DNA of 32,000 bases from Coprobacillaceae bacterium (GCA_963675515.1 OY776328.1:1470001-1502000); one strand, 5' to 3'; positions 1,827 to 29,404 are shown, counted from the first letter of the stretch. Numbers and translations: made by a program. Notes: a model not told the origin generated them from the letters alone.

Positions 1827-1860
1827 GATTGTTTATACAGTTTGTTTGAGCGGGTAAATT

Positions 1861-5533: not shown

Positions 5534-5612
5534 CTATTATATATTGTTGATACTTTTGCTAATTTTGTTTTTTAGATTCTCATTAACCATAAGATATGGC
5601 TTGTACTAAATT

Positions 5613-6260: not shown

Positions 6261-6336
6261 TTTTATCCGAACCTTATTTTGCAAGTACCTGAAGCATGTG
6301 GTCATTCAAATTAATTGTTAAAAGGAGAAATATATT

Positions 6337-10814: not shown

Positions 10815-11116
10815 GAGGTCTTCCGATAATACAAGTGCTTTCCAGTTGATTCTTACAAATTTGTCGTTTATTTTGCGATTATAAAGAACGACATTATAAA
10901 TCGAGACTGCTTTGACACCATACTGACATATATTCAATGTTTTTCACAGACTGGTTAGTAAAACGAATGCCATTTAATTCACAAATCTCATATGATATAT
11001 CAAATATTTAGCAATGTATTTAAACGTAGCCAGCTCTAACGAGGAAAATTTCAATTAATATTATCATGGAAATTGTATTAATATGCATATAAAAATTTGG
11101 AGGGGGGAATTGAATT

Positions 11117-12043
11117 ATGAGTGCAACTTTAATTATCATGGCGGCCGGAATGGGGAGCCGCTATGGTGAAGGAATCAAACAATTGGAAAAAATGGGGCCT
11201 AACGGCGAAATCCTGATGGAGTATTCGATCTATGATGCTCTTGAGGCCGGTTTTTCCAAAGTCGTCTTCATCATCCGCAAGGATCTTGAAGCGATTGTCA
11301 AGGAAACGTTGGGAGATCGCATCGCCCAAGTAACAACAGTAGAGTATGTCTTCCAGGAGCTTAGTGATTTGCCTGAAGGGTTTGTCTTGCCTGAAGAGCG
11401 CAAGAAACCTTGGGGAACGGGACAGGCAGTACTTTGCTGCAAGGATGTGGTCAAGGAACCGTTTGTGATCATCAATGCCGATGACTACTATGGCAAGACA
11501 GCCTTCAAGCTGATCTATGACTACCTGACTCAAGAACATGAAATCAAGGCGCCTATCGACCTGTGCATGGCGGGCTTCATCCTGAAAAATACCTTGTCCG
11601 ACAACGGGGCGGTGACCAGAGGGATCTGTGTCGTCGATGAAAAAAGCAAGCTTTCAAAAGTTGTGGAAACAAAAGGGATCTACAAAAACGAAGTCGGGGA
11701 AGTCATCCACAATGACAACGGAACCGATGTGGTCGCATGTCTGGACAGCCACGTATCGATGAACATGTGGGGTGGTTATCCCGATTTTATCGCAAAATTG
11801 CATCAAGGTTTTGTCGACTTTTTAGCCGACCAAACCAAGGACGAGCTGACCGGAGAATATCTGTTGCCGATCTTTGTCGACAGCCTGATCCAGGAAAATC
11901 TGGCCCAGGTCAAACTGTTGGAAACGACCGACAAATGGTTTGGCGTTACTTATGCAGCTGACAAACAAGAAGTAATCAGCCAGTTAGGTGAGTTGATCAG
12001 CGCGGGAAAATACCCAGAAAAGCTGTGGTCTGAAAAAATATAG
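11117..12043 (+). CDS. Sugar-phosphate nucleotidyltransferase (NTP_transferase fold)
   Basis: LIIMAAGMGSRYGEGIKQLEKMGPNGEILMEYSIYDA is the G-x-G-(S/T)-R nucleotidyltransferase N-terminal signature. Strong SD GGAGGGGGG upstream. Visibly GC-richer than the upstream locus. Confidence 0.75.
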   Translation: MSATLIIMAAGMGSRYGEGIKQLEKMGPNGEILMEYSIYDALEAGFSKVVFIIRKDLEAIVKETLGDRIAQVTTVEYVFQELSDLPEGFVLPEERKKPWGTGQAVLCCKDVVKEPFVIINADDYYGKTAFKLIYDYLTQEHEIKAPIDLCMAGFILKNTLSDNGAVTRGICVVDEKSKLSKVVETKGIYKNEVGEVIHNDNGTDVVACLDSHVSMNMWGGYPDFIAKLHQGFVDFLADQTKDELTGEYLLPIFVDSLIQENLAQVKLLETTDKWFGVTYAADKQEVISQLGELISAGKYPEKLWSEKI

Positions 12044-12369
12044 AGTATTATGAATCACGGTAGATTAACCTTTATTAAAATTTTTTCACTGTTTTTGTGA
12101 TTTGCTTAACATGCGTTTAGTAATTTGAAAGAAGTTGACACTTAGGGAGAGTGGCCAATTCTAACAATTTTTAAGGTTCTATATTCAATCTGTTTTGTTT
12201 TATATATTCCTTATGAAATTGCAATGTAGTAGATTGATTATTTTTAAATTAACCGTAGTTCCCGGGTAGAGTTTCTAACCACTCTGCCTTTGCATTAGAC
12301 TGAATACGCGGAAACCCTTATATTTACTTGATTTTTTAACTTTCGAACACTTCCTTTTTATGCCAAATG

Positions 12370-12403
12370 TGGTATAATGTGGTTAGAAGATATTTCTAAC
12401 CAC
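12370..12403 (+). promoter_or_regulatory. Extended -10 promoter (TGgTATAAT) followed by a perfect palindrome of the IR core motif
   Basis: TG at 12370-12371 and TATAAT at 12373-12378. GTGGTTAGAA-gatat-TTCTAACCAC spans 12379-12403, and TTCTAACCAC is the inner core of both terminal IRs. Confidence 0.5.
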
Positions 12404-12417
12404 GAAGGGAGAAAACC

Positions 12418-13923
12418 ATGTTTATCGCTTATGATATCAAAAACGGAATTGAATATGGCAAGGTTTGCACCTCGATCCGTGAGGGAAAGAAAGTCAAGAA
12501 AACGTATACTAATCTCGGACGAGTTCTTGATAAAGAGCGCGGAATCTTTCAGAACCGGTCACTTGGTGTGTTCACCTATTCCGTTGAAAACGGCTATGGC
12601 AAATCACCTGTGGATTTTGTACCCGATTCAAACGGAGACAGAGGAAAGATGAAACTTATCCTGGACTTCGGAGACAGCTTCTTCATCAATGAATATCTGA
12701 AGCAAACAGGCTTGGATAAAGTAGTAGATGAGATCGGATACGGAAATCCGGATACCCTAAAAGCGATGCTTTCCTACTATATATTGTGTAACATGGCTAA
12801 CTGCAACGCCATTGACTGGTTCGAAGGCAACTATGCGAGAATCCTGTATCCAAAGGCAAACCTTACCAGCCAGCGGATTAGTGATTTTCTCACCGCTATC
12901 GGGGATGAATACTCGGAGCGTGAATTCTTCAAGGCATATTTGGAATTCCTGTTCAGTAAAGACAACACAATCAAGGAAACCGGGATACTGATTGACAGCA
13001 CTGGACTTCCTAACGATATCCACTTTCCCTTGACGGCCATCAGTAACCATAACGGTCATATAAGCAATGAGGTAAGGCTGATCTATGTGACCCAGCAGGA
13101 TACCGGAATGCCGATATACTTCCGTTATTGTCCAGGCAACGTCATCGATACACCCACATTGGTCAGAACCATAGCTGAGTTGAAGGAAAGTGGCGTCAAC
13201 ACTAAATTTGCCATTCTTGATGCCGGATACTATTCGGATGGTAATCTCCTGCACCTATATGAGAACAAGATATCATTCGTCACAAGACTTAAGGAAAACC
13301 TGAAGCTATACAAGCACCTGGTAAACAACCATCTCGATGGCATCCAGGATAAAGAGAATTTCGTAAGCTATAACAGCCGTTATGCCTATATCAAACGGGT
13401 TGAGTGCGAACTTGTTGAAGGTTACACCGGATATGCCTACATCGGTCTTGACCTTGATCGGAAATCGAGCGAAAGCCATAAGTTGTTCCAGAAGGCAAAA
13501 GATCAAAAACTCAGTGATGAAGACGTTTACGAGAAGATGAAAAACAAAGGAATATTCATTTTGGTCTCATCGAGACGCATAGCGAAGGATAAAATCCTGC
13601 CGCTTTACTATACCCGGCAACAGGTTGAACAAATTTTCGACATCAGCAAGAACTATGCGGATCTATTGCCCTTGCGAGTGCAAAATGAGGACACCTTCAG
13701 AGGCCACCTGTTGTTAACGTTCATCGCAACTGTGTTCTGTAAGATGGTTCAAGACAAGCTGAAGGGTACCAAAATGAATCCTCAATCCTTGTTCCTGAAC
13801 CTGCGAAACCAAAAATGCAAAGTATATGATAATGCTGTAATCACTCAAGAAGCTTTCAAGAAGGCGAATGACTGTTACAAAGCATTCGGTATTGAATGCC
13901 CGGTCAGAATACCGAAAACCTGA
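12418..13923 (+). CDS. DDE transposase, IS4 superfamily (IS1634-like N-terminus)
   Basis: 501 aa. Y-(2)-R-(3)-E-(6)-K signature in LYYTRQQVEQIFDISK. Candidate catalytic Asp residues in LIDSTGLP and ILDAGYYS. SD GAAGGGAG upstream. Confidence 0.85.
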   Translation: MFIAYDIKNGIEYGKVCTSIREGKKVKKTYTNLGRVLDKERGIFQNRSLGVFTYSVENGYGKSPVDFVPDSNGDRGKMKLILDFGDSFFINEYLKQTGLDKVVDEIGYGNPDTLKAMLSYYILCNMANCNAIDWFEGNYARILYPKANLTSQRISDFLTAIGDEYSEREFFKAYLEFLFSKDNTIKETGILIDSTGLPNDIHFPLTAISNHNGHISNEVRLIYVTQQDTGMPIYFRYCPGNVIDTPTLVRTIAELKESGVNTKFAILDAGYYSDGNLLHLYENKISFVTRLKENLKLYKHLVNNHLDGIQDKENFVSYNSRYAYIKRVECELVEGYTGYAYIGLDLDRKSSESHKLFQKAKDQKLSDEDVYEKMKNKGIFILVSSRRIAKDKILPLYYTRQQVEQIFDISKNYADLLPLRVQNEDTFRGHLLLTFIATVFCKMVQDKLKGTKMNPQSLFLNLRNQKCKVYDNAVITQEAFKKANDCYKAFGIECPVRIPKT

Positions 13924-14205
13924 TATGTGGTTAGAAAAACCACCCGGGAACTAAGGATTAATTATTGATAATGACATTATTTGTGAGTTGGAAATATTCA
14001 CCCATTGCTTGTGGCTCTGTCATGCTCAGTTAATGGTGCTATTACCTTTTTAGTATATGATTAAATGGTCAAGTTATATGTCGATTCCGGAGATGAACGA
14101 CTAAAAGAGATAGAAGATAAGGTAGAATGAGGTTTAGTGGTTATTTGTGCGATATGAAACTAACCGATTCTTAAACCATACAAACACGAAAGAGGGGGAT
14201 TTATT

Positions 14206-15569: not shown

Positions 15570-16250
15570 ATGTCAATAAATTTTCTTACCAATGGGGACA
15601 TTTTAATAGTTTACCAAAGTGATGGTGATGCGGACCGTTGCATTGCTGTAGACGAGTTCGGTCGGGTTGTCGATGGTGACAGCATTCTTTATGTATGCGG
15701 CAAGTATGCAAAAAGCCATGGTGAATTGGAGAACGACACTGTCGTGACGACAATCATGTCCAACCTGGGACTTTACAAGGCATTTGATGAACTGGATATC
15801 AAATATGAAAAAACCGCTGTAGGGGACAAATACGTCAATGAAAACATGGTAAACAACGGCCATGTCCTGGGCGGGGAACAATCGGGGCATATCATCTTTT
15901 CCAAGCATGCCACAACCGGTGATGGAATATTGACATCATTGAAGGTGATGGAAGCGATTATCGAATCGAAGAAGACATTGGCTCAGCTGACGGAAAACCT
16001 GGTTATCTATCCGCAGTTGATGAAAAACGTAAGGGTAAAAGACAAAAAGGCCGCGCAGGAACATCCAGCCGTGCAGGCGATCATCGCTGAAGTTGCCGAT
16101 GAATTGGGCAACAATGGTCGGGTCCTGGTCCGGGAATCGGGAACCGAACCGGTCATCAGGGTCATGGTCGAAGCGGCAACTGACAAGCTGTGTGAAAACC
16201 ATGTCAACAATATCGTACAAGTGATCAATCAATCGGGAGTGGCAATCTAG
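15570..16250 (+). pseudogene. glmM: Phosphoglucosamine mutase, C-terminal half only (5'-truncated)
   Basis: Recognisable from DGDADRCIAVDEFGRVVDGD (metal-binding loop, about nt 15618 onward) through GGEQSGHIIF and RESGTEPVIRVMVEA. The full protein is about 450 aa. Upstream sequence is AT-rich and unrelated, and the listed ATG is fortuitous. Confidence 0.8.
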
Positions 16251-16270: not shown

Positions 16271-16299
16271 TTGAAAAATATCGCATTTTAGGTTAATAT
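16271..16299 (+). promoter_or_regulatory. Sigma-70-type promoter of the hxs operon
   Basis: TTGAAA (16271-16276), 17-nt spacer, TAATAT (16294-16299), about 70 nt upstream of the SD GAGGGGGA and the TTG start at 16371. Confidence 0.55.
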
Positions 16300-16487
16300 T
16301 GTAATTATTTGTACGTTTTAAATGATTTGGAATATTAAAATACAGTAATGGTTAATTGAGGGGGATTATTTTGGAGAAAGAATATAAATTCAACCGGGAA
16401 ATGTATTCCCGGGAGTCACTAATCAAGGCTGCGTACAATTTCATTGATGATTACTATATCGGGCTGGATATGGATGAAGCTTACTAT

Positions 16488-17854
16488 GATAGTGTAAAAT
16501 ATTTTGTGTAAATAGGATTTCAACTTTTAAGTAGAAAAAAGGGTGCAACCCTTGTAAAATTAGTTCGACGAAAACAATTTACGAGAGGATTACACCCATG
16601 AACTATTTTACAACAACTTTACTTAGAAGTCTAATATCAAATGATAATAATCTGCCAGCTTTTGAGCAAGTAGTCTCAGAACTTTTCCGGAGCGAATTGG
16701 AGAATGCCATCAACGATATTTTGAAGTCCGAACTTACCGTTTTTCTTGATTATGAGAAATATGACCGATCTGAGAATTCGAATTCAAGAAATGGCTATTA
16801 CAACCGCGATTACAACACTAAATATGGTGTGTTGAACCTGCGCATACCACGTGACCGTCAAGGGGACTTTGATTCACCGCTGGTCCCTAAATATCAGCGA
16901 AACGATCTAGCTACCACCAACACTGTCATCGATCTATTTAATTCAGGGATGACCAACAGCGACATTGTAAAAACTGTTGAATCAATCTACGGCAAGAAAT
17001 ACTCCAGACAGACAGTTTCCAATATTACTAAGGAAATAGTTGCCCATGTTGAAGCCTTTAAAAATCGCCCGTTAAACAAGCAATACGCAGTTGTTTATAC
17101 CGACGCTACAGTTATTCCTTTGCGGCGCGATACCGTGTCTAAAGAGGCGGTTCATATCGCTATAGGAGTGACTCTAGAGGGAACAAAGGAAATACTAGGA
17201 TATTCAATTGCGCCAACCGAATCCGCAACAACATGGCGGGAACTGTTTGAAGAGTTCAAAACACGCGGTTTGGAAGCGGTTGCGTTATTCTGTACTGACG
17301 GGCTAACCGGTGTTGAGAACGCCATTGAAGACACTTTTCCGATGGCCAAAATCCAACGTTGCCTGGTGCATGTTTCAAGAAACATTACAGCCAAAGCAAG
17401 AGTGAAAGACCGTAGTGAGATTGCACAGGATTTTAAGCGAGTTTACAATTGCGAAACTGAAAAAGCGGCGAGTGAAGAGCTTAAGGAGTTCATCACCAAA
17501 TGGGGGCAAAAATACCCAAAAGTGGCAAAATCACTTGAAGAGAATTCAAATCTATTCACTTTCTATTTGTTCCCTGAATCGGTACGCAAGAGCATATATA
17601 CAACAAACCTGATCGAAGGTTTCAATAAACAGCTCAAGCGGAAAATCAAGGCTAAAGAACAATTCCCAAATGAGGAAGCTGTGGAGAAATACATCGTTTC
17701 GCAATTTGAACAATATAACCAAAAATTCATGAACCATACCCATAAGGGATTCAAAGGAATATCTTACGAACGTTGGTTCCTGCTAGAAGAAGAATAACCA
17801 AGATGATCAGTAAGAACTAATTTTACAAATTTACACAAAAATATTGACACTACC
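16488..17854 (+). mobile_element. IS256-family insertion sequence (1367 bp) with 8-bp target duplication
   Basis: Left end GATAGTGTAAAATATTTTGTGTAAA versus the reverse complement of the right end GGTAGTGTCAATATTTTTGTGTAAA. CTTACTAT occurs at 16480-16487 and 17855-17862. Confidence 0.9.
16598..17797 (+). CDS. IS256-family (mutator-type) transposase
   Basis: 399 aa. NSRNGYYNRDYNTKYGVLNLRIPRDRQGDFDSPLVPKYQR, VVYTDATVIP, FCTDGLTGVENAI and IQRCLVHVSRN are hallmark Transposase_mut motifs. Confidence 0.95.
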   Translation: MNYFTTTLLRSLISNDNNLPAFEQVVSELFRSELENAINDILKSELTVFLDYEKYDRSENSNSRNGYYNRDYNTKYGVLNLRIPRDRQGDFDSPLVPKYQRNDLATTNTVIDLFNSGMTNSDIVKTVESIYGKKYSRQTVSNITKEIVAHVEAFKNRPLNKQYAVVYTDATVIPLRRDTVSKEAVHIAIGVTLEGTKEILGYSIAPTESATTWRELFEEFKTRGLEAVALFCTDGLTGVENAIEDTFPMAKIQRCLVHVSRNITAKARVKDRSEIAQDFKRVYNCETEKAASEELKEFITKWGQKYPKVAKSLEENSNLFTFYLFPESVRKSIYTTNLIEGFNKQLKRKIKAKEQFPNEEAVEKYIVSQFEQYNQKFMNHTHKGFKGISYERWFLLEEE

Positions 17855-18091
17855 CTTACTATCTTGTGAAGATTGTTCCTAAAGACATTGCCAACGCTGG
17901 ATTGGATGCCGAGACATTCAAAAATGAAATCCTGATCCAGGAAACCCGGGCAGTGGTGGCTAAGCGTACGGGCAATTTGCGGGAAATGATCTATTCTCGA
18001 TCATTGGCTTCGACAATAGTTTCAGGGACCACACCTGAAGCGGGTGTCCAATGCCAAATGAATGCGCAAGACATCCTGGTGGACTGGTTTG

Positions 18092-18316
18092 ATGAAAATG
18101 AATAACAGAATGGATCTGCATCGGGACTTGTTCAGTGACAAGTTGATCTCACAAGCAATCGAAGACTATGCCCTTTTGGTGGACATCACCGTCGAGCATC
18201 GGGGCAATGATGACTACGCTAGGCTGTTATTCGATAATCCCAAATATGAACTGGCTTTGACAATGGCCGAGTTTCGCAATTACCTGATTGGATTGGTGCG
18301 CCAGGATGAATATTGA
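18092..18316 (+). CDS. Second, shorter HxsD-like small protein
   Basis: MKMNNRMDLHRDLFSDKLISQAIEDYALLVDITVE...ALTMAEFRNYLIGLVRQ has the same layout as the first gene (SLIKAAYNFIDDYYIGLDM ... ETFKNEILIQETR). The start is uncertain (18092, 18098 or 18110) and overlaps the upstream stop. Confidence 0.5.
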   Translation: MKMNNRMDLHRDLFSDKLISQAIEDYALLVDITVEHRGNDDYARLLFDNPKYELALTMAEFRNYLIGLVRQDEY

Positions 18317-19325
18317 TATCATATCCCTGTTAATGACCACTGCGTTTTCTTTGACCTGCGCCTTGATGGACTTGAAAGACGGCATTGTCAGGAATGCTGT
18401 CTTCAAGTATCTTGGGATTACTTTGGCGATGGTCAACCTGATGTTGGTCTATCTGAGTGTTGGGCCCGATTGGAAACGTTATGGGCTGTTCCTGGCGGTT
18501 GGAGTCATTATCTCGCTTATATTGTTCTACACGCATATCTGGGCCGGGGCGGATTGCAAGTTCTATGCGATAGTTGTTTTGTTGTTGCCTTGGCCCGTGG
18601 TCGTAGGCCAGGTATATGGCTTAAGCAATATTGTCGTCATTGTGATCCTGGCATTCTTGTATGGATATATGTACATATTGGGCGAGTCAATCTGGCAGTA
18701 CGCCAATAACAGGAAAGACCTGTTGGTTTGGCAAACTGTCAAATCGGATTTTGGCCACTATTTTAAGACGTATTTCTTGATTGTCCTGGCAAATGAAGTT
18801 ATCAATTCGCTGACTTCACTGTTTTTCCAGGTGACGATAAGCAATATCCTGCTGGTTGTTATCGATTATGCTCTTGTTGTTTGGGCGAACAAGTGGCGCT
18901 TGCTTGAAAACAAAATGATCGTGGCGACAATCATTATTGGCAACATTGCAATGCAGCTTTCGGGACTGATAAGCATATTGACCTTAATCAATCTCATGAT
19001 CTGGGCTGTGGTGATCTTGGCTCTGGTACTCAAGAATTTTGCAAGAAGTTTCAACTATAGGCAAATCGACCTTGGCGCTTTGGAAAAAGGGATGATCCTT
19101 TCAACCATGTCTTCAATCCAACTGGCAAGAAAAAGGTACTCGCGCTTCAAGAAGATTTCCGATGAATCATTGAACTCCCGTCTTGATGAACAGGACATTT
19201 TAGTTTTGCACCAGCTGGCATCTTCTTTAAAAACGCCTCAGGAGGTCTGTATTGTCAAGAAAATACCGTTCATCCTTTTCATTTATCTTGGCATCGCTTC
19301 TATCCTGATCATGGGGGCACTTTAA
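18306..19325 (+). CDS. Peptidase A24 (prepilin/preflagellin peptidase)-like polytopic membrane protein with a large internal or C-terminal expansion
   Basis: Candidate catalytic Asp motifs ALMDLKDGIVRN and IWAGADCKFYAIV (GxGDxK-like). C-terminal KKIPFILFIYLG resembles the IPFGP motif. About 339 aa versus about 160-250 for minimal A24 enzymes. The ATG at 18306 overlaps the upstream stop. Confidence 0.6.
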   Translation: MNIDIISLLMTTAFSLTCALMDLKDGIVRNAVFKYLGITLAMVNLMLVYLSVGPDWKRYGLFLAVGVIISLILFYTHIWAGADCKFYAIVVLLLPWPVVVGQVYGLSNIVVIVILAFLYGYMYILGESIWQYANNRKDLLVWQTVKSDFGHYFKTYFLIVLANEVINSLTSLFFQVTISNILLVVIDYALVVWANKWRLLENKMIVATIIIGNIAMQLSGLISILTLINLMIWAVVILALVLKNFARSFNYRQIDLGALEKGMILSTMSSIQLARKRYSRFKKISDESLNSRLDEQDILVLHQLASSLKTPQEVCIVKKIPFILFIYLGIASILIMGAL

Positions 19326-19326
19326 G

Positions 19327-20427
19327 ATGCTAAAAGTAAGTAATTATTTATATGGTACCCGGATGGCTTCGGTGGCCAAAAGCGAAGCGGTATTGAAGCG
19401 AATGATCGATTTGAATTATGATGTGTGCTATGTGGAGCGATCAAGTCTATGTTTTTATCCTGATGGCCTGAGGGTTCCGCTTGTTGATGATGAATATGAT
19501 GCGTTCCATGATCTTCCCGACTACAGCATCCTGGAATTCCGGGAAGGCAGGGCATATCTAAGCCATGATGCGAGTTCGCTCGACAACGCGATCTTCATAA
19601 CCAATCGGTGCAATTCCAACTGCATCATGTGTCCCACAAGCAATCATGTGCGTCGGCAAAGCGAGATTGCCGACATTGCCAATTTGCTCAAGTTGTGCCA
19701 CCAGATTCCCAGTGATGCTGCCCATCTGACGATCACCGGGGGCGAGCCTTTCCTATTGAAAGATGACCTTTTTGTCCTGCTGCAATACCTCAAGATCCAT
19801 AAGGGCAATATTGAATATCTCCTGCTGAGTAATGGTCGGGCTTTGGGGGATTACAATTATTTCACGAGATTCAAGGCCACTGTTCCGGAACATCTGCTGA
19901 TTGGCATCCCGTTGCACGGTTATGATGCAGCGACCCATGATCGTATAACCCGCAGCTCGGGCAGCATCAACCAGACTTATCAGGGTCTGAAATACCTGGC
20001 TTCGACTTGCATCAAGGTGGAATTGCGGATAGTAGTCAGTCGATTGAACATCGATTATATCGATGCCATCGCCAATCTGGTAATCAGGGAATTGGCTCAT
20101 GTCCAGGTCGTAACCTTCATCGGTTTGGAAATGCTGGGGAATGCCCGTCTAAACTTCGACCAGGTCTGGGTTGATTACCGCAGCTCCTTTGAAGCAATCA
20201 CAGGAGCCATCGACAACTTGATCGCTTCAGGCATCAATGTCGTTATCTACAATTATCCCTTGTGTTGCGTCCCGGAAAAGTATTGGTCGATTTGCCATCG
20301 CAGCATTTCGCCCGAGAAGGTGCGCCACTTGGATGAATGTCTCACATGCACTAAAAAGGACTACTGCGGAGGGATGTTTATGGGAACCTACAGACTGATG
20401 GAAGGAAAGGTAAAGGCAATAAGATGA
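19327..20427 (+). CDS. hxsC: Radical SAM protein, HxsC-type maturase
   Basis: ITNRCNSNCIMCP (CxxxCxxC), ITGGEPF, and a C-terminal Cys cluster CCVPEKYWSIC...CLTCTKKDYCGG. There is a 95-aa N-terminal extension before the cluster. The start lies 1 nt after the upstream stop. The C-versus-B assignment follows gene order and size, from memory. Confidence 0.75.
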   Translation: MLKVSNYLYGTRMASVAKSEAVLKRMIDLNYDVCYVERSSLCFYPDGLRVPLVDDEYDAFHDLPDYSILEFREGRAYLSHDASSLDNAIFITNRCNSNCIMCPTSNHVRRQSEIADIANLLKLCHQIPSDAAHLTITGGEPFLLKDDLFVLLQYLKIHKGNIEYLLLSNGRALGDYNYFTRFKATVPEHLLIGIPLHGYDAATHDRITRSSGSINQTYQGLKYLASTCIKVELRIVVSRLNIDYIDAIANLVIRELAHVQVVTFIGLEMLGNARLNFDQVWVDYRSSFEAITGAIDNLIASGINVVIYNYPLCCVPEKYWSICHRSISPEKVRHLDECLTCTKKDYCGGMFMGTYRLMEGKVKAIR

Positions 20428-21809
20428 TCGCACCATTCAATTTCAAGCAATTTGGCAACAAGATAATCATGACCAATGACCTGGGCCGTTATATGTTTGT
20501 CGAAAAGAAAGAATTCCAGGACTTGCTAAATGACAGGATGGATACCGGATCACAGTTGTACCGGGAACTTGAAGACAACTTCTTCGTATTCAACAGCTCC
20601 ATGGAGTATTTTGTGGAACGGATGAAACCCGAGCTGCGGACTGCCAAGAGCTATCTGTTTACAGCCACCAGCCTCCATATCTTTGTAGTCACCAACTACT
20701 GCAACTCCAATTGCGTCTATTGCCAGGCCAACAGCAATTGTTCCAATTCCAAGAAGGTTATGGACAGGGACATCGCCCGCAAGGCCGTTGACTTCGCCCT
20801 GCAGTCGCCTCAAAAACAGCTTACCTTTGAATTCCAGGGTGGGGAACCCTTAAGCAATTTCCCCATCATCAAGGAGATAGTGGAATATGCTTCCTCAAGG
20901 AAAAAAGACAAAGTCATCGCTTATACGATAGTATCCAACTTGTCGCTGCTCAATCAGGAGATGGTTGATTTTTTCAAGGAACATTGCATCTCGATTTCCA
21001 CCTCCCTGGACGGTCAGGCGGAGCTTCACAATCAAAACCGTCCCCTGGCTAACGGTGATGATTCTTTCGCCATCCAGAAAATGGCAATGGCCAGGCTCAA
21101 AGCCAACAAGATCGGTTATGGGGCCATCCAGACAACGACCCGGACAAGTCTTAAGTATGCCCGGGAGATAGTCGACCAGTATCTGGAGTTTGGTCTTTCC
21201 AATCTGTTTGTCCGGCCACTCACCCCGCTTGGCTGTGCTGCTTCAAGCTGGGATGATATCGGTTATACCGTTAAAGAATTCATTGATTTTTACAAGGACA
21301 CCATGCTGTATATTTTAAAATTGAATCAGCAGGGGACAATCATCAAGGAAGGACATGCCAGCATATTCCTGCAAAAGATAATCAACGGCTACGGTGTCAA
21401 CTACATGGAACTTCGTTCCCCTTGTGGGGCGGGTATCGGGCAGTTGGCATATTATTATGACGGCAACATCTTCACCTGCGATGAGGGCAGGATGCTCCAT
21501 GAAATGCATGACAGTTCGTTCAAGTTGGGAAATGTGGCGGATATGGATTATGACAGTCTGATGAATTCGAAATTATGCAAGACAGTCTGCAAGCACAGCA
21601 TCATCGAAAGCATTCCCAAATGCGCTGATTGTGTCTATATGCCATATTGCGGCACTTGCCCGGTAGTCAATTATGCCCTGGAGGGCGATATTATCCCCAA
21701 GTCGGTTGCCAATTACCGTTGCGAACTGTATGGCGGGATGCTCGAGACGATATTCGAACTGATCCAAAACGAAGACTACCTGAACATATTCAAGGAATGG
21801 GTGAAATGA
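20424..21809 (+). CDS. hxsB: Radical SAM/SPASM-domain protein, HxsB-type maturase
   Basis: VTNYCNSNCVYCQA, FQGGEPL, and a SPASM-like C-terminus (SPCGAG...DGNIFTC ... CADCVYMPYCGTCPV). ATGA overlap with hxsC at 20424-20427. Confidence 0.8.
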   Translation: MIAPFNFKQFGNKIIMTNDLGRYMFVEKKEFQDLLNDRMDTGSQLYRELEDNFFVFNSSMEYFVERMKPELRTAKSYLFTATSLHIFVVTNYCNSNCVYCQANSNCSNSKKVMDRDIARKAVDFALQSPQKQLTFEFQGGEPLSNFPIIKEIVEYASSRKKDKVIAYTIVSNLSLLNQEMVDFFKEHCISISTSLDGQAELHNQNRPLANGDDSFAIQKMAMARLKANKIGYGAIQTTTRTSLKYAREIVDQYLEFGLSNLFVRPLTPLGCAASSWDDIGYTVKEFIDFYKDTMLYILKLNQQGTIIKEGHASIFLQKIINGYGVNYMELRSPCGAGIGQLAYYYDGNIFTCDEGRMLHEMHDSSFKLGNVADMDYDSLMNSKLCKTVCKHSIIESIPKCADCVYMPYCGTCPVVNYALEGDIIPKSVANYRCELYGGMLETIFELIQNEDYLNIFKEWVK

Positions 21810-22744
21810 TGAACAAGATAAAAAAGATATTATCAAAAAAACTGTTAATAATTACTGTAATATTGTTTTCATTTGCCGGCATCGCAGTTGCGTATGGCGA
21901 AGACGAGTATGGCATCATCGAGAATTTCGACCTCTACCGGGAAAACTACGAGACTGGCCAACTCGAGACGGTGAATGGTATCTATTATGGCTCTATTGCC
22001 GAATTGAAGAGCGTTTCACATAGTGGCGAGTTTACCTTTGATGTGGGCGACAGCTATTCCGGCGAGTGGGACAATAAAACAATCGAAGGCTGGGGGACAT
22101 ACTCGTATGAAACCTTGGGTAGCTACACTGGTTATTTTGAAAACAATCTTCGAAGCGGCGAGGGTACCTTCAAATGGAGTGACGGGGGTGAGTATGTCGG
22201 CTACTGGGAGCTCGATAGATTATCCGGTACGGGGACTTACACTGCTCCCGAAAACTATGTCTTGAAGGGAACATTCAGTGGAAATAAATTTATCGCGGGA
22301 ACTGTCAAGACAACAATCGATGACACAGCCTATACTTATTATCTGGAAGACGGTACTTTTATCAATGCGATCGACATTGACTACTCCAACGGAAGCAATT
22401 ATCATGGCGACTATAAAGACGGTAAAATAAACGGTACGGGCATCATGAATTACAGCAACGGTGACCAATATAGTGGCCAATTCGGTTCCGGTCTGCGTGC
22501 AGTGATCGGAACGTACACCTGGAAAAACGGAGCCACGTACTCAGGAGATTGGAGCAACGACAAGATGAACGGCAAAGGCGTCTATACCTATCCCACAAAT
22601 GCCGCCGGAAAGTCGGTGTCTGGCAACTTCGTCAACAACAATATTACCGGAAGCAGCACTTACATCGACGATGATGGAAAAAAATTCGAAGTAATCTGGA
22701 GTAATGGCGTTTGCAAGCAGGTGAAAGGAGCAACCAATGATTGA
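21806..22744 (+). CDS. Secreted or anchored MORN-repeat protein
   Basis: Sec-type N-terminus MMNKIKKILSKKLLIITVILFSFAGIAVA/YG. At least 6 MORN-like units (YSGEWDNKTIEGWGTYSY, YTGYFENNLRSGEGTFKW, YVGYWELDRLSGTGTYT, YHGDYKDGKINGTGIMNY, YSGQFGSGLRAVIGTYTW, YSGDWSNDKMNGKGVYTY). ATGA overlap with hxsB at 21806-21809. The ORF-track start at 21629 is an upstream read-through. Confidence 0.85.
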   Translation: MMNKIKKILSKKLLIITVILFSFAGIAVAYGEDEYGIIENFDLYRENYETGQLETVNGIYYGSIAELKSVSHSGEFTFDVGDSYSGEWDNKTIEGWGTYSYETLGSYTGYFENNLRSGEGTFKWSDGGEYVGYWELDRLSGTGTYTAPENYVLKGTFSGNKFIAGTVKTTIDDTAYTYYLEDGTFINAIDIDYSNGSNYHGDYKDGKINGTGIMNYSNGDQYSGQFGSGLRAVIGTYTWKNGATYSGDWSNDKMNGKGVYTYPTNAAGKSVSGNFVNNNITGSSTYIDDDGKKFEVIWSNGVCKQVKGATND

Positions 22745-23273
22745 TAATTTTCCAACCATAAAAAAATCAATTGAGGATTTGATCAACGATGAAGAGGGTA
22801 ATATCCCAAGAGGCAAACTGATTACCATCGGTTCGACCCTGATGCTCATGGGGATGATCATGGGAATTGATGTCTATGCGACCCACGGTTCGCATAAGTC
22901 GCACTCGTCCCATTCATCTACCTCATATGTAAGATCGCATTCATCTACCTCATATGTAAGATCGCATTCATCGCACGGATCCCACACGTCACATGCTTCG
23001 CATGCAAGCAGCCAGACATCGGATGCTAGTACCCATGCGTCTCATTCCAATACTCACTCATCAGCACCGGCTCATGTAAATTCTAATACTACCCCAACCC
23101 ATATAAGCAATGCCGGTGGAAGTGTACCAGGGACCAGTGAGATCCCTGCACTTCAAACTCCGGTTCCTGATAATTTCGGTACGAATATACCAAACATTTC
23201 AACAGCGGTATCGTTCGAATTGGAAGTGGGGAAAACAATTGTTCCGGATTTCAAATTGGATAATGGCAAGTAA
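22737..23273 (+). CDS. hxsA: His-Xaa-Ser repeat protein (HxsA-type putative substrate)
   Basis: THGSHKSHSSHSSTSYVRSHSSTSYVRSHSSHGSHTSHASHAS...THASHSNTHSS contains about 12 H-x-S triplets. There is no Cys in the whole 178 aa. A hydrophilic 27-aa N-terminus precedes one hydrophobic segment. There is an 8-nt overlap with the MORN gene. Confidence 0.85.
   Translation: MIDNFPTIKKSIEDLINDEEGNIPRGKLITIGSTLMLMGMIMGIDVYATHGSHKSHSSHSSTSYVRSHSSTSYVRSHSSHGSHTSHASHASSQTSDASTHASHSNTHSSAPAHVNSNTTPTHISNAGGSVPGTSEIPALQTPVPDNFGTNIPNISTAVSFELEVGKTIVPDFKLDNGK
22911..22972 (+). repeat. Perfect 27-bp tandem duplication (2.3 copies) inside hxsA
   Basis: cattcatctacctcatatgtaagatcg occurs at 22911-22937 and 22938-22964, then cattcatc. 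It encodes HSSTSYVRS twice. Confidence 0.95.
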
Positions 23274-23970: not shown

Positions 23971-24264
23971 CTTTTCCCATAATATCTTGATTGCTTGAGA
24001 GATCGCCTCGCTGGTAATCTGATCAGTTTCCCTTAACAGGTTGGAGCGATTCCAAAACACATCGTTGAAATACGACAATTCCAATCCTATTTTCATTAAC
24101 GGAACGCAAATCCAGTTTGTCAGTCTTGATTTCCCAATCAGTACGTTTACATGATTCCCATTGTATTTCAATGAAAACTCACACTGGCTATCGGTGATAC
24201 TGATTAACTCAAGATTATTCTGCCAGACAATTCCATCATATTCGCATTTAAATGAGATCATCAT
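23956..24264 (-). CDS. Hypothetical protein (102 aa), last gene of the transposon operon
   Basis: 4-nt overlap with the ATPase gene stop. No recognisable motif. Confidence 0.45.
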   Translation of the reverse strand: MMISFKCEYDGIVWQNNLELISITDSQCEFSLKYNGNHVNVLIGKSRLTNWICVPLMKIGLELSYFNDVFWNRSNLLRETDQITSEAISQAIKILWEKKIIA

Positions 24265-25064
24265 ATATTGACCTCGTTAATTGTCTGCAGCGCAATATCG
24301 CTATCGATAACTTCGACACCTTTTATTGCACCGATAAACATCGCCCGGTCACATATCCTGTCGATTTCTCGGCACACACCGTTGGCGCCATTGATTATTG
24401 CTTCCAATGCGTTGTTGTCGAATACTTCCTGGATTGTCTTGGCCAGGAGCAACTTGTCCTTGATGTATGCATGTCCTTCCAGCTTATCTAATTGACCGAT
24501 ACTGTAGTTGACAATGATTCTTTGCGTTAATGAGTCATGAGCCCCAAACCGTAAATGTCGAATTATCGAAGGTAGACCAACCATCAAAATTACCGCATGG
24601 TTCTTGGAATCCATATCGAAGTTAAATATCATCTTTAAATCATTGAGTATCGCCGTACTCATATGGTTACACTCATCAAAGATGAATACCGGAGTGATCC
24701 GCTTTTCATAAACCAATTGGTAAATGGCGGTCTGGATATCCTTGAACAAGTCGTTTTTCCGATATCGAGGAATCAAATCAAGGGAATCCGCTAGTTGCAT
24801 ATAGAACTCCTTGACCGATAAAGTCGACATGGACAGGTAAATTATCTTGTAAGTGACCTTGGGCAGGTTGCTTACGTAGTTCCTGATCATGGTTGTCTTG
24901 CCACGTCCTGGTTCCCCAAGAATCATCCCGAATCCCTTTATTTCAAACAAACTGTCGAGCCTTATTTTCAGCTCTTTGTATTCCTTCGTTTCGATAAAAT
25001 TATTCTTATTGTTTTTAATGAATGGGTTGAACTCTAACCCATATCTGGTCCAGTATTTTTCCAT
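24261..25064 (-). CDS. AAA+ ATPase, TniB/ExeA/Tn552-p271-like transposition helper
   Basis: YWTRYGLEFNPF (ExeA-like N-terminus), Walker A GEPGRGKTT, Walker B PVFIFDECNHM. 267 aa, abutting the transposase gene with no gap. Confidence 0.85.
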   Translation of the reverse strand: MEKYWTRYGLEFNPFIKNNKNNFIETKEYKELKIRLDSLFEIKGFGMILGEPGRGKTTMIRNYVSNLPKVTYKIIYLSMSTLSVKEFYMQLADSLDLIPRYRKNDLFKDIQTAIYQLVYEKRITPVFIFDECNHMSTAILNDLKMIFNFDMDSKNHAVILMVGLPSIIRHLRFGAHDSLTQRIIVNYSIGQLDKLEGHAYIKDKLLLAKTIQEVFDNNALEAIINGANGVCREIDRICDRAMFIGAIKGVEVIDSDIALQTINEVNI

Positions 25065-26312
25065 CTAATCTTCTCCTGCGCATAACTTTGGTTTCACTCT
25101 AACTGCTGTTGCATTCGCATGTTTATCCAATAATTTGATTGGTTCTAATTCTCCTGTGTGTTTATTAACTACATAAACCTGGGACAAATCTGGAGCATAT
25201 CTAAAAACATGGCGCTCATTTGAATATATGTACTCAATTTCGTATTCTTTGTTTTCAATCTTGACCACCGAATCCACACTGACCTTTCTTTCCACTTCAA
25301 ACAGGAAGGTGTTATCGATGGACTCGTCGTTCAATCGCTTGATCAGGTTGCTTTCATGATAGAACCTTTCGCTAGGGGTCAAGCCATTCAGTGAAGAATG
25401 GACCCTTGTATTGTATTTGTGAATAAATTTGTTTAGATCGGTATTCAATTTCTCTAAATCATTGGTATAGTCAATCACATTTAATTGAGCAAAAAACTGT
25501 TTTTTTACAGTTGAGAAAAAGCGCTCAATCTTCGCCTTTCCAGTTGGTTCGAACGCTTTACAATAGCTAATTGTAGAATTTATTCTTGCGGCAGTCATCT
25601 GAATCTGGGAACTCTTATAGTTCGAACCATTATCAAACCGGAACATTTCTGGGACACCATACTTGGTAACTGCGCTTTTCATGGCATCCATTAGATTCAC
25701 CGTATTATCATTAAGATATATCCCCATATGGACTATCATTCTTGAAGCATCGTCAATCAAGGCAATCATATATGTCCGGCGCTTTTTACCGTTGATGTAA
25801 ATATATGGCCCAACTGAACTGTCGCCAGCCCACATCGAATTGATATGGCGGGCTTCATAACGCCTCATGTCCTTCTTGTTTGAAATACGCAGCTCAGCTT
25901 TGATTTCATTAACACAACGGTTGACTGTCGATAGGGAAACATCAGTCTTCTTTATTAATCCATCTTCAATCAGTTTTTCATAGATTACAGTTGCCGGCAA
26001 CCTAGGATAGGTTGTCTTATAGTGCTTTATGACCTCAATGACGTCGTCATCGAGTCTTCGCGATCTCCCGGCATCACTTCTCCCTTGTGGAATCAGGCCA
26101 TCAAATCCTTTAGTCTCATAAGCCTTGATCCATCTTCGGATGGTTGTATCGGACACGGTGAAATCACTACTGTCAAAATCCTTATAAATCTTTTTGGTTG
26201 CCTGCTCGATAGCCTGGGATTTTGTCCAAGATTGATCATAATTTCCGGTTATTATGTCATGAATTATCCTATGGCGCAATAAAGTAACAAATTCCTGTTC
26301 TTTTCTATTCAT
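25065..26312 (-). CDS. DDE transposase (rve/Mu-transposase-like; TnsB/TniA/Tn552-p480 class)
   Basis: Triad context WAGDSS, FDNGSNY and GKAKIERFF, with an N-terminal HTH region. The ORF opens at 26354, but GGGAGG plus 6 nt favours the ATG at 26312 (MNRKEQEF). Confidence 0.85.
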   Translation of the reverse strand: MNRKEQEFVTLLRHRIIHDIITGNYDQSWTKSQAIEQATKKIYKDFDSSDFTVSDTTIRRWIKAYETKGFDGLIPQGRSDAGRSRRLDDDVIEVIKHYKTTYPRLPATVIYEKLIEDGLIKKTDVSLSTVNRCVNEIKAELRISNKKDMRRYEARHINSMWAGDSSVGPYIYINGKKRRTYMIALIDDASRMIVHMGIYLNDNTVNLMDAMKSAVTKYGVPEMFRFDNGSNYKSSQIQMTAARINSTISYCKAFEPTGKAKIERFFSTVKKQFFAQLNVIDYTNDLEKLNTDLNKFIHKYNTRVHSSLNGLTPSERFYHESNLIKRLNDESIDNTFLFEVERKVSVDSVVKIENKEYEIEYIYSNERHVFRYAPDLSQVYVVNKHTGELEPIKLLDKHANATAVRVKPKLCAGED

Positions 26313-26360
26313 ATTGTTCCTCCCATCAGTACTATATAGGAGTTGATTGAACAAGTTAAC

Positions 26361-26915
26361 TTAGGCTATGTGGTTGAAGGTATATAGGATATTTGGGGTC
26401 ATTTTTACCTGCATGAACTGCACCAAATAATTTGAAAAACAGGAAATCACCAGGGTATTGAGATTACCCAAAGAGATGCGAAAAGTATTTAACCTCTCTT
26501 GCCAATGGTTTCGATATCTAAGTATGACATTATAAATCTCGCATTCACAAATCTCAGGATGACAATCAAGAATTAGTTTCAGACCGTTTTTACTACTTTG
26601 CTTTCTAATTATTTCAACCTGAACAGCCAATGGGATACTGGTATATGGAACGAGGTCGGAAAGTAAAATGGCATGGGTAACCCCACAATCCTTACATTTC
26701 AAGCGCATTATCCGCAACCTAAAAATTCCAAAAGGTAGCTTGACCTTTCGGAAGTAATAGCCATGAATGATGTGATTGCCGCCGCATGAGTTGACACAAC
26801 CGATGGAGTAACGGTTAATATCATTTACAGCTGCATCGTAAAAATCCTGTAGCTTTGATTCAGAATCGATTTCGAGTAATTTACTCTTGATTTTATCATT
26901 GTGATAAGTTATCAT
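26361..26915 (-). CDS. Cys-rich (putative zinc-binding) protein, first gene of the transposon operon
   Basis: 184 aa. GCVNSCGGNH ... KCKDCGVTH gives a CxxxC...CxxC arrangement. Family not recognised with certainty. Confidence 0.5.
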   Translation of the reverse strand: MITYHNDKIKSKLLEIDSESKLQDFYDAAVNDINRYSIGCVNSCGGNHIIHGYYFRKVKLPFGIFRLRIMRLKCKDCGVTHAILLSDLVPYTSIPLAVQVEIIRKQSSKNGLKLILDCHPEICECEIYNVILRYRNHWQERLNTFRISLGNLNTLVISCFSNYLVQFMQVKMTPNILYTFNHIA

Positions 26916-27008
26916 AATTTTGTTTTATGGGGAATGAGAGAAGCTACTTGGCGGTGGGGTCTCTCATTTTTCTTTCTATGGAATATTTATCAACAAGATA
27001 TCAAAAAA

Positions 27009-27067
27009 AGAGGTCGGGTTCAACTAATTTGAAGAAAAAACATTCAAATTAGTTGGCAACGGCCTCT
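27009..27067. repeat. Long imperfect inverted repeat at the transposon right end
   Basis: agaggtcgggttcaactaatttgaa (27009-27033), 9-nt spacer, ttcaaattagttggcaacggcctct (27043-27067). The arms contain the subterminal repeat motif in opposite orientations. An A7 run lies just upstream. Confidence 0.8.
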
Positions 27068-27128
27068 ATTTAATTTGCACAAAAACCTAGAAATATTTAC
27101 CATATAAATCGACTAGCTACACGATATT

Positions 27129-28799
27129 ATGTTTGTCAGAGCTGTTAAGAACAATAAAGGTAAAGATAATACCTATTTTTGTGCACTTGTTGAGTCTTAT
27201 CGTGAAAATGGTGTATCTAAACACCGCGTTCTTATTAATTTCGGTCTTGTAGACGGAGAAAGTGTTCCTTTCCTCAAAGCGGCTTTCGCTAAAAAGAAAC
27301 CAAGGTTGGTATACGATGATGAATAATGTAGTTAAGACTAATAAGATGACAGATTTCTTCAATTCTTTCGCGGATGTCTTGTCTTCTGACATCACTCGTA
27401 ATTTATCTAGGAACTTTAGTTCTAATTTTACTCGCAATCGGACTATGACTTTCAGGGATGTAATTCTCTACTTTGTTTTTAGAAATTCTAAGGACACTAA
27501 CACGGACTTGACCAAGTATTTCTGCTCCACTGACCGCTTGGAAAAAAGGATCACCAAGCAAGCTCTTAACGTCGATATCAAAAAACTCAATCCATCAGTA
27601 TTCAGATATTTATTCAAAGAGTTTGCCAAGGAGTTCTATCAAACAAGCTGCCTAAGACATATAAAGGGTATACGCTTTTAGCTGAAGATGGGACCTTTCT
27701 AGAAATTCCCTATAGCATCCACAATATTTATAACTTCGGCTTTTGGAAAAACCAGTACGTCAAAGATATTTTCGATGTTAAGAAAGTTCTGTCCAAATCA
27801 GCTGGACTATATGACGTCACCAACGGCATCTTTTTGGATTTCATGATGAGACCTGCCCCTTACTCAGAAATTCCACTTGCCTTCCAACACCTTTATAGTT
27901 GTGGGGATCTGTTGGCTGGCAAGAAAGTGATTTATCTTGCTGATCGCTACTATGGCTCAGTCGAGCTTATCAGTCATCTTGAGCACTTAGGATTTGATTA
28001 TTGCATCCGTGCCAAATCCAACTTCTTTAAAAAGCAAGTCAGTGAAATGACTTCAAATGATGAGTGGATCGAGGTAGATGTTGACAGGCTATGGCGGAAA
28101 AGATTCCGGTTCTCTGATGAAGCCCGTAAAATCAGAGAAGATAACCCCAAAGTGAAGATAAGAGTCGTAAAATTTACTTATGCATACAGTAATAAATTCG
28201 GGGAGTCCATTGAATCAGATATAACATACTTTACCAGTTTGTCAAAAGAAGAGTTCAGCCACGAGGATATCATCGAGCTCTATTCAAAGCGTTGGAATAT
28301 TGAGGTGGCATATAAAACGCTAAAAACCGATATGGAACTGGAACGACACGTTAGCGAATCCGACACCGTATCCCAATGCTGCATCTATGGCAAAATCGTG
28401 CTTTACAATATCTTGGGAGTGATCAGGAAAGAAATCGACAGGTATCTTAGCAGGCACCCGGGCAAGCACCGCCGCCGGCCTAATCGTGAAGAAACCTCCG
28501 ATAAAAATGATGAAGATAATATCCAGTACCAGGTCAACATCAAACAACTACATAATCTGCTGATGGAGAACAACCTGCTGTATCCGTTTTACAGTCATAA
28601 GAAAACACTGATGCGAAAAAGGATTAAGCAAATAGTTGCCGTAGCCCAAACAATAAAAGTGCCCGTCCGCAAGAACAGGCACAGTCAACGTTGGGGCAGA
28701 GTAGTTCCTAGTGGATTCTACTACCGATTCTCGCTTGATGGGCGAAACTATCCAAAAATTCAAACCATCAAAGGCGTCATGAGAACAGTTGCCCCGTAG
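27129..28799 (+). pseudogene. IS1634/IS4-family transposase, frameshifted
   Basis: N-terminus MFVRAVKNNKGKDNTYFCALVESYRENGVSKHRVLINFG is IS1634-like. The pieces lie in frames 3/1/3. The frame break at about 27655-27681 falls inside YKGYTLLAEDGTFLEIP (first catalytic D). Other motifs are YLADRYYGS (second D) and YSKRWNIEVAYKTLK (Y-2-R-3-E-6-K). Confidence 0.75.
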
Positions 28800-29075
28800 T
28801 CAAGAATACACTATCATTATAACATGAATATCGCAATTTTAAAAAAACGCTAAAATTCTATGGGGGATTATGCGCTTTTTTTCATGTGAAGATTTAAACT
28901 AAACTTGAATTAAGCGTCAGAGATTTATATTTAAGCTGCATATAGATATAAAAAGAGCCAACTAGGAAAAAGGTCCTAAAGTTGACTCCATTGGGGGAGT
29001 GGATAGGTTACAATAAATTAGACAAGATTATAAGGACATGATAAAATCTTGTTAAATTTGTGGAGGATATTCAAA

Positions 29076-29369: not shown

Positions 29370-29404
29370 TCTTTGCAAATCAACACAAATACTCTATCAG
29401 CGCT

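Follow-up and report, generated by a model that had tools for sequence, protein, structure and literature searches.

We analysed a 32,000-nucleotide stretch of DNA from a Coprobacillaceae bacterium (GCA_963675515.1, OY776328.1:1470001-1502000), hereafter the window, and found that its positions 16271-23273 very probably hold a Firmicutes-specific, seven-gene subtype of the His-Xaa-Ser (HXS) system with a conserved gene order. We refer to it as HxsA3-type; its genes lie on the plus strand in the order hxsD - hxsD_rel - A24 peptidase - hxsC - hxsB - MORN - hxsA3. HxsA3 and HxsD_rel are already known to NCBIfam (NF038309 and NF038315). What is new is the seven-gene Firmicutes subtype, in which a dedicated A24-type protease is universal and a MORN-repeat protein, the candidate anchor, is frequent. 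The explanation that we favour for these loci, with a probability of about 0.6, is an HXS system in which the repeat protein HxsA3 would be modified, processed by the A24 peptidase and tethered by the MORN protein, and would block phage DNA.

In 2026, work in E. coli established HXS as an anti-phage system that acts by blocking DNA entry (Li et al., Nat Commun 2026, PMC13128918). The four-gene E. coli system restrained 110 of 113 coliphages, and its HxsA carried a modification of +8 Da on SHRSS, ascribed to the radical S-adenosylmethionine (SAM) enzymes, and was processed at the N-terminus (PMC13128918). HxsD was essential and was shown in a complex with its binding partner HxsC, while mature HxsA is periplasmic and held there by a peptidoglycan-binding domain (PMC13128918). 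The authors left the HxsA-processing protease unnamed and invoked possible 'additional host factors', and the export route of modified HxsA is a question left by their paper (PMC13128918). Of the systems in their survey, 99.7% came from Pseudomonadota; four genes were present in more than 99.8%, and the order was D-B-C-A in 99.6% (PMC13128918), which is also the layout that we found in a plasmid-borne example from Klebsiella. The text of that paper contains no mention of a peptidase or protease, MORN, Firmicutes or Gram-positive bacteria (PMC13128918). In the literature that we searched, HxsA3, HxsD-like and related model names were not mentioned, and A24 or MORN partners of Hxs were not found. 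A preliminary description of the window had held that no chemistry, product or phenotype was known for the Hxs cassette, which the published anti-phage activity, +8 Da modification and N-terminal HxsA processing contradict (PMC13128918).

Genes in the window were taken from an open reading frame (ORF) listing, and families were assigned by NCBIfam and Pfam profile searches (table 1). The listing returned the seven same-strand genes and an insertion sequence (IS) at the positions described earlier. The preliminary identification of a twin radical SAM Hxs operon also held, with HxsB, HxsC, HxsA3 and HxsD_rel all above their NCBIfam cut-offs. HxsB matched its model over the full profile length and had PapB, CcpM and SCIFF maturases as next-best NCBIfam matches, whereas the margin of HxsC over the TIGR03977 equivalog cut-off was narrow (286.3 versus 267.9). 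The Cys and GGEP motifs previously quoted were present in the translations of the two radical SAM proteins, with CNSNCVYC and a C-terminal CADCVYMPYCGTC in HxsB. HxsA3 is free of Cys, as had been noted, and carries 13 HxS triplets, where about 12 had been counted. At E<=0.01 the canonical HxsA model was absent from the NCBIfam matches of the window, and the A24 and MORN proteins had no NCBIfam match. In Pfam, the MORN profile PF02493 passed, and the A24 protein reached 23.6 bits with PF01478 against a gathering score of 26.5, a marginal membership. PADLOC (2023), which is without HXS models, matched only a generic viperin-like radical SAM similarity.

The genes are packed as first described, with ATGA overlaps at 20424-20427 and 21806-21809, an 8-nucleotide overlap at 22737-22744, an overlap at 18306-18316 and a 1-nucleotide gap at 19326 between the A24 gene and hxsC; we found no intrinsic terminator downstream of hxsA3. 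The ORF that contains the 5′ part of hxsD (16356-16511) continues into IS sequence, and the most likely start of hxsD is the TTG at 16371, preceded by the ribosome-binding site GAGGGGGA. The hxsD_rel ORF is open from 18062, but its probable start codon is the ATG at 18092 or 18098 (74 or 72 residues), with overlap of the hxsD stop; in related loci a gene of 65-72 residues occupies this position. The TTGAAA-17-TAATAT promoter reported upstream of hxsD is present. It matches the consensus at 9 of 12 positions, however, and the region holds 29 promoter-like sites where 17 are expected by chance, so that the site alone is weak evidence.

Table 1. Features of the HxsA3-type operon (window coordinates; scores in bits, with model cut-offs where given).
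Feature	Position	Strand	Basis
Promoter-like TTGAAA-17-TAATAT	16271..16299	+	Upstream of hxsD; read from the sequence
hxsD 5′ fragment, codons 1-39	16371..16487	+	TIGR03976 positions 1-35, 26.1 bits
IS256-family insertion sequence within hxsD	16488..17854	+	NF033543, 387 bits; transposase 16598-17797
hxsD 3′ fragment	17863..18105	+	TIGR03976 positions 52-87, 25.9 bits
hxsD_rel, short HxsD paralogue (probable start)	18092..18316	+	NF038315, 47.2 vs cut-off 41
A24-like GxGD aspartyl membrane peptidase, 339 residues	18306..19325	+	PF01478, 23.6 vs gathering score 26.5
hxsC, radical SAM maturase	19327..20427	+	TIGR03977, 286.3 vs cut-off 267.9; CNSNCIMC present
hxsB, radical SAM/SPASM maturase	20424..21809	+	TIGR03978, 526.7 vs cut-off 370, full profile length
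MORN-repeat protein, 312 residues, predicted N-terminal signal peptide or signal anchor	21806..22744	+	PF02493, 80.2 vs 22.5, 4 stretches
hxsA3, His-Xaa-Ser repeat precursor/effector, 178 residues	22737..23273	+	NF038309, 96.3 vs cut-off 65

The organisation of the locus is not the four-gene D-B-C-A one, and the order D - D_rel - A24 - C - B - (MORN) - A3 recurs in related loci; with hxsC before hxsB and seven genes, these loci therefore form a distinct subtype. D-C-B-A had been taken for the canonical order in the preliminary description. The canonical order is D-B-C-A, both in the survey (99.6%, PMC13128918) and on the Klebsiella plasmid, and C before B marks the subtype described here.

To follow the neighbourhoods we used three independent anchors, the A24 protein, HxsB and HxsA3. 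A sequence search with the A24 protein retrieved a small, coherent family of about 340 residues, and all seven context look-ups that returned DNA showed the arrangement HxsD - (small ORF) - A24 - radical SAM - radical SAM. These seven homologues reach down to 23% identity and include the three most distant full-length members. For the window's A24 protein itself and for the Lachnoclostridium homologue, exact look-ups returned no record. With HxsB as anchor, a scan of GTDB genomes gave three loci: one in a Lachnospiraceae metagenome-assembled genome (MAG) with all seven genes, a contig-truncated copy in an Acutalibacter MAG, and an Omnitrophota locus that belongs to a different Hxs type and is without the A24 gene. 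The HxsA3 anchor gave 39 metagenome loci, whose genes we assigned with hidden Markov models trained on the window and its relatives. Every locus with a visible upstream part (16/16) had D - D_rel - A24 - C - B, and of the 24 loci with a visible junction from hxsB to hxsA3, 18 (about 75%) had a MORN gene there. A few orders were permuted (A3-D-D_rel-A24 in L044), with the A24 gene still present where that part of the contig was visible. Three further HxsA3 look-ups all returned the full seven-gene set.

Both families are large. HxsA3 forms at least 848 clusters at 90% identity, some of them named HxsA3 by NCBI and found in Oscillospiraceae, Lachnospiraceae and Bacilli MAGs, and the A24 subfamily has 428 representatives (50% identity, E<=1e-30); among the best 150 of these, nearly all have about 330-350 residues and match over near full length. 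The A24 peptidase, the MORN protein and the second HxsD, previously listed as extras to the four-gene cassette, are thus conserved partners of the Hxs genes and not passengers, although the second HxsD had already been modelled (NF038315). A large Gram-positive HXS branch exists, with its own candidate processing protease and its own candidate envelope anchor.

HxsA3-type loci share with the HXS of E. coli and Klebsiella the pairing of HxsB, which has a SPASM domain, with HxsC, a small HxsD, and an exported protein whose repeats start with (A/G)HRSHSSH. Both are compact and horizontally mobile, and often lie near defence genes or IS elements. They differ in that the HxsA3-type has seven genes, hxsC before hxsB, an extra HxsD paralogue, an A24 peptidase and usually a MORN protein. 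The hosts differ as well: those of the HxsA3-type are Clostridia and Bacilli, which have no periplasm, and HxsB is only about 27% identical. The Klebsiella HxsA has a plain Sec signal peptide and a pro-region, followed by AGHRSHSSHRSHSSHRSS and a C-terminal peptidoglycan-binding-like region. In contrast, HxsA3 has no peptidoglycan-binding domain and carries a conserved leader before its hydrophobic segment. Radical SAM/SPASM cassettes for ribosomally synthesized and post-translationally modified peptides (RiPPs), such as those of ranthipeptides (PapB) and of sactipeptides with PCAT-type exporters, likewise combine a leader-bearing precursor with radical SAM/SPASM maturases and couple leader removal to export. 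Compared with these, the HxsA3-type product is a low-complexity repeat protein of about 130 residues instead of a small peptide, its putative protease is an A24 intramembrane enzyme and not of the C39/PCAT kind, and no ABC exporter is encoded.

Very probably, the A24 protein is an active aspartyl membrane protease of the A24 type and belongs to a distinct, Hxs-dedicated subfamily. D22, in SDxKxGIIxN, and D83 and K85, in the GxGD-like AG[AG]DCK, were invariant in 25 homologues, and both Asp motifs were found in 143 of 143 full-length representatives (<=50% identity). When a profile of the family was searched against 5.8 billion sequences, the matches that followed its own members (>=201 bits) were archaeal FlaK-type A24B peptidases (E 1e-15 to 4e-11). 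FlaK was also the sole PDB sequence match (3S0X, E 0.1), with D22 aligned to the QD motif (QD...IE) of its first catalytic Asp and AGGD to GGGD. It is the invariance of the Asp motifs, the reach of the profile to FlaK-type enzymes and the agreement of both motifs with FlaK that argue for a catalytic protein. A precomputed PF01478 match was present in 19 of 30 homologue clusters. The AlphaFold2 model (pLDDT 78.5) has about 10 transmembrane (TM) helices, and by the positive-inside rule the loop charges put the two Asp residues on the predicted cytoplasmic side, together with a conserved insert of 73 residues (249-321) that averages 11 Lys/Arg. The insert had no Pfam or PDB sequence match, and Pfam did not detect a methyltransferase domain in the protein. 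Conserved within the insert are Y251, KGMIL (261-265), E287, R292 and IVKKIPF (316-322).

As in the peptidases of family A24 (PilD, ComC, TadV and FlaK, 3S0X), we see a polytopic membrane protein with two predicted catalytic Asp residues at the cytoplasmic face, the second in a GxGD-type AGGDCK, and a presumed substrate in which a short cytoplasmic leader is followed by an N-in TM helix. The Hxs-linked peptidase departs from that family in an additional C-terminal half, which contributes about five further TM helices and the conserved insert (KKGMILS...SRL...IVKKIPF), and in its presumed substrate HxsA3, which is without Gly-1/Glu+5. No pilus, flagellum, archaellum or competence genes lie near it; in all the loci examined we found neither pilus or archaellum genes nor a class III substrate with pilus linkage.

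We then considered HxsA3 itself. Across 121 cluster representatives its N-terminus is far better conserved than an ordinary signal peptide, with the consensus (M)D.LFP.(F/I).K.IE.LIED(E/Q)EG-NIPG(K/N)K-LL.LGTM...LGS....D(V/A)FA-(G/A)HRSHSSH. An acidic leader of about 25 residues (LIEDEEGNIP) is followed by two basic residues, one hydrophobic helix and a signal-peptidase-I-like (V/A)FA, after which the repeats begin at once. Among the proteins present in every locus, HxsA3 is the only one with a cytoplasmic leader and an N-in TM segment. We name it as the candidate substrate because this is the architecture on which A24 peptidases act, and because the MORN protein, absent from about a quarter of the loci, cannot be an obligate substrate. 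The odds that the A24 peptidase processes HxsA3 appear about even. We sought an A24-specific cleavage motif in HxsA3, and no site could be assigned from sequence. EEG|N was considered as a demonstrable A24 site and rejected, since the leader and the Gly of the TM segment are common to A24-less Hxs types. One idea, unproven, is that a normal Sec signal peptide (KK-hydrophobic-AFA) would be unmasked by removal of the acidic leader, which would place export after modification. The leader, the TM segment and the signal-peptidase-like site are consistent with the surface or export-linked fate that had been suggested for HxsA3, as are the wall anchors of loci without a MORN gene.

In the MORN homologues an N-terminal basic stretch and one TM helix precede the MORN repeats, which are therefore predicted to be extracytoplasmic; the homologue of one distant locus combines a cleavable signal peptide with fused SLH (wall-binding) and Big_2 domains. 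Where the MORN gene is missing and hxsB abuts hxsA3 (L019, L020, L026/27, L032, L035 and also L057), HxsA3 always has a C-terminal module of its own. This is a TM segment with a polybasic tail in L019, L020 and L026/27, a choline-binding-type repeat in L032 (25 bits, just under the gathering score) and another kind of repeat domain in L035 and L057. The roughly 30 HxsA3 proteins encoded next to a MORN gene have only a Pro/Thr-rich tail. This complementary distribution suggests that the MORN protein could tether HxsA3 in the envelope, a proposal on which the evidence is finely balanced. With other MORN-repeat proteins (PF02493) it shares four scored MORN stretches (80 bits); it differs from them in that it is predicted to be a signal-anchored bacterial protein outside the cytoplasm and belongs specifically to an Hxs operon. 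We know of no function for such bacterial extracytoplasmic MORN proteins.

Two further observations concern the HxsA3 tails. A correlation between a tail motif and the MORN length class is real and confounded by phylogeny, and we did not use it as evidence. L046 (2810-4345) has two tandem hxsA3 genes, each ending in a type I dockerin above the gathering score; its MORN status is not visible, and the dockerins imply attachment to a cohesin-bearing, cellulosome-like surface scaffold.

From these elements we propose the following sequence of events. Pre-HxsA3 is made, as its sequence shows, with an acidic cytoplasmic leader, one N-in TM segment and the HxS repeats. By analogy with E. coli, HxsB and HxsC, aided by HxsD and HxsD_rel, would recognise the leader and modify an HxS repeat in the cytoplasm. 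In the manner of prepilin and preflagellin peptidases, the A24 peptidase may then cut off the leader that precedes the TM segment; both substrate and sites are inferred. Cleavage at the signal-peptidase-I-like (V/A)FA site before the first repeat might subsequently release the repeat domain outside the cell. In the cell envelope, a membrane- or wall-anchored MORN protein would hold the anchor-less HxsA3, replacing the peptidoglycan-binding domain of proteobacterial HxsA, as the complementary distribution suggests. By homology, and in view of the neighbours in defence islands, the mature envelope-bound HxS array would block phage DNA entry.

Defence is the probable function of HxsA3-type systems. 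The anti-phage role is drawn mainly from homology to the E. coli system, and genomic context gives independent support. L005 has a complete Shango system upstream (SngA 286, SngB 636 and SngC 788 bits), L051 has PDC-S20 and HEC-02 downstream, and downstream of L055 come SoFic, AbiO/Nhi and a type I restriction subunit. Decayed copies recur as well: besides the IS256 in hxsD of the window, we found an IS21 insertion in hxsB of L057 (10953-14439, on a Butyrivibrio-like contig), a split hxsC in L012 (4128-5230) and, in an Acutalibacter MAG (L007, 3893-4045), an hxsA3 cut right after the EEGN motif. Such frequent decay, the patchy distribution of the loci and their horizontal transfer are in keeping with defence cargo.

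Several observations weigh against the explanation that we favour. Defence is carried over through HxsB and HxsC at an identity of only 23-27%, and this step crosses the Gram-negative/Gram-positive divide into hosts without a periplasm. HxsA3 has no prepilin motif (Gly -1, Glu +5) and instead has an invariant Gly about 7 residues before the helix. The leader motif (FP.IKK..., EEG.I) also occurs in the A24-less environmental loci L009, L045, L047 and L048, which makes it more likely to be what the maturases recognise than a site of A24 action. HxsA3 could also be freed at the predicted signal-peptidase-I site, with no A24 step needed. For the peptidase itself, the PF01478 score falls just under the gathering score, and a Foldseek search of the model against the PDB gave no significant match, with FlaK having the highest probability. 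The complementarity of MORN genes and HxsA3 anchors comes from about six MORN-less loci, some of them related to one another. Finally, hxsD is disrupted in the window, where the operon may be silent or non-functional.

These points have to be set against the alternatives. That the A24 and MORN genes are local passengers of this one operon would agree with their lack of NCBIfam matches and with a published HXS that has four genes in more than 99.8% of cases (PMC13128918). The survey behind that figure was, however, 99.7% Pseudomonadota (PMC13128918), and the synteny data refute the passenger reading, whose probability we regard as negligible: the A24 gene held the same position in 16/16 loci, 7/7 of its homologues down to 23% identity lay in Hxs loci, and MORN was found in 18/24. 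Rather unlikely, in our view, is that the A24-like protein has a role other than processing HxsA3, such as acting on a host protein or the MORN anchor, clearing leftover signal peptides as a signal-peptide peptidase would, or serving through its insert as a membrane docking platform on which the maturase complex assembles. The missing prepilin cleavage motif, the signal-peptidase-I-type site already present, the same leader architecture in A24-less Hxs types and the conserved 73-residue cytoplasmic insert, which has no known function, would all suit such a role. Yet the catalytic Asp pair is invariant in 143 diverged representatives, which argues for catalysis, and the MORN protein is dispensable in about 25% of loci. 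A24 and signal-peptide-peptidase-type GxGD proteases require an N-in TM topology, which no universally co-encoded protein other than HxsA3 offers.

For the product, a modified His/Ser-rich surface protein might serve another purpose, either metal (Zn/Ni) capture and buffering or cell-wall physiology. HxsA3 is indeed His-rich, and some automatic annotations call it 'zinc transporter 7', but such metal-transporter names are artefacts of composition. The window copy lies beside an exopolysaccharide locus and not beside defence genes, and in one clade the operon is followed by XpaC-TelA-TelA-rhomboid, genes of an envelope-stress type. We nevertheless consider this purpose unlikely: the only HXS studied experimentally is a defence system (PMC13128918), defence systems adjoin several HxsA3-type loci, and the patchy, transferred and often inactivated copies fit defence. 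The envelope barrier might also be aimed at other incoming DNA, through entry exclusion in conjugation or against transformation. Conjugation-type genes adjoin some loci, namely one for a type IV secretion system coupling protein in L001 and sortase, CHAP and NS_2 nuclease genes in L004, and plasmids and other mobile elements were outside the tests of the E. coli authors (PMC13128918). The neighbours in defence islands are anti-phage systems, however, and a barrier directed at other DNA seems very unlikely.

If modification, A24 processing and MORN tethering lead to a phage DNA block as we favour, this would be the first function for a distinct A24 subfamily and for bacterial extracytoplasmic MORN proteins. 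HxsA3-type loci bear on the questions of HxsA protease, export and host factors in the 2026 HXS paper. They make the HxsA processing step testable through two Asp residues and offer a self-contained system for reconstitution, and they prompt one to ask how DNA entry would be barred where there is no periplasm. A bolder extension, which we regard as tentative and somewhat doubtful, is that the A24 peptidase is the missing leader protease of HXS-type defence, that a wall-tethered, radical SAM-modified HxS array on a MORN scaffold stops phage DNA in Gram-positive cells without a periplasm, and that the housekeeping prepilin peptidases GspO and PppA/HofD might by extension be the host factor that processes E. 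coli HxsA.

The copy in the window is a member of this family by descent and is presently disrupted. An IS256-family element with 24-nucleotide terminal inverted repeats (16490-16513 and 17829-17852) splits hxsD and is flanked by a perfect 8-bp target duplication, CTTACTAT (16480-16487 and 17855-17862). The insertion is clean and, judging from its sequence, recent; several copies or fragments of the same transposase occur on the same 2.88-Mb contig. Each hxsD fragment scored about 26 bits against a cut-off of 50, whereas in-silico removal of the IS and one repeat copy gave an open frame of 119 codons that passed (TIGR03976, 63.3 bits). The rejoined HxsD shares 51% identity with its intact counterpart in L010, the closest relative, and aligns to it ungapped across the junction, and the other operon genes have the same lengths as their homologues. 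All seven genes had been thought to be co-translated, but the IS256 lies between the remaining genes on one side and the promoter and 5′ end of hxsD on the other. Since HxsD is essential in E. coli, the window copy is probably non-functional, or at least deregulated and uncoupled from its promoter. It is useful for pointing to the family and not as a functioning system.

The operon has a GC content of 45-46% in a surrounding genome of about 32%, and is flanked by an exopolysaccharide locus with a truncated glmM and by a cluster of further IS elements. This GC contrast and the position beside IS elements fit horizontal acquisition. A megablast search of the operon against plasmids gave no match. 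The window shows no synteny with the flanks of L010, and the operon has no defence genes as neighbours there.

Other arrangements were seen around related operons. In a clade with long MORN proteins (about 450 residues), hxsA3 is followed on the same strand by XpaC (Halogen_Hydrol), mostly then by TelA-TelA and often then by a rhomboid protease. This module, of an envelope-stress type, was present in L001 (10556-13790), L003, L004, L017, L018, L022, L024, L025, L033 and L049, with XpaC only in L051. It is absent from the short-MORN clade and from the window, where no XpaC or TelA remnants were found. Other Hxs-like types (L009, L045, L047 and L048) occurred in environmental metagenomes and an Omnitrophota MAG; they encode Cys-containing precursors with HxS/HGS repeats and the leader FP.lKK...EEG.I, carry several additional radical SAM genes, and have neither an A24 nor a MORN gene.

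The surroundings of the operon in the window are dense in IS elements (11000-14000 and 24261-30184), and their GC content varies as a mosaic between 32% and 45%. Besides a DDE_Tnp_1 transposase (12418-13923) and, on the minus strand, an IS21-like istA/istB pair (24261-26354) accompanied by DUF6431 and DUF6618 genes, there are a partial DDE transposase (27834-28799) and an IS3-type integrase (29405-30184). Just upstream of the Hxs promoter region, a phosphoglucosamine/phosphoglucomutase gene (15570-16250) is cut down to domains III-IV (226 residues) and marks a rearrangement boundary. The exopolysaccharide locus (669-10352) contains a polysaccharide pyruvyl transferase (669-1826) followed by a separate FrhB/FdhB-like Fe-S protein (1861-3087), a GT2 glycosyltransferase, a Wzy-like polymerase and a second polysaccharide pyruvyl transferase of 831 residues (6337-8832) that is fused to an FrhB/FdhB-like domain.

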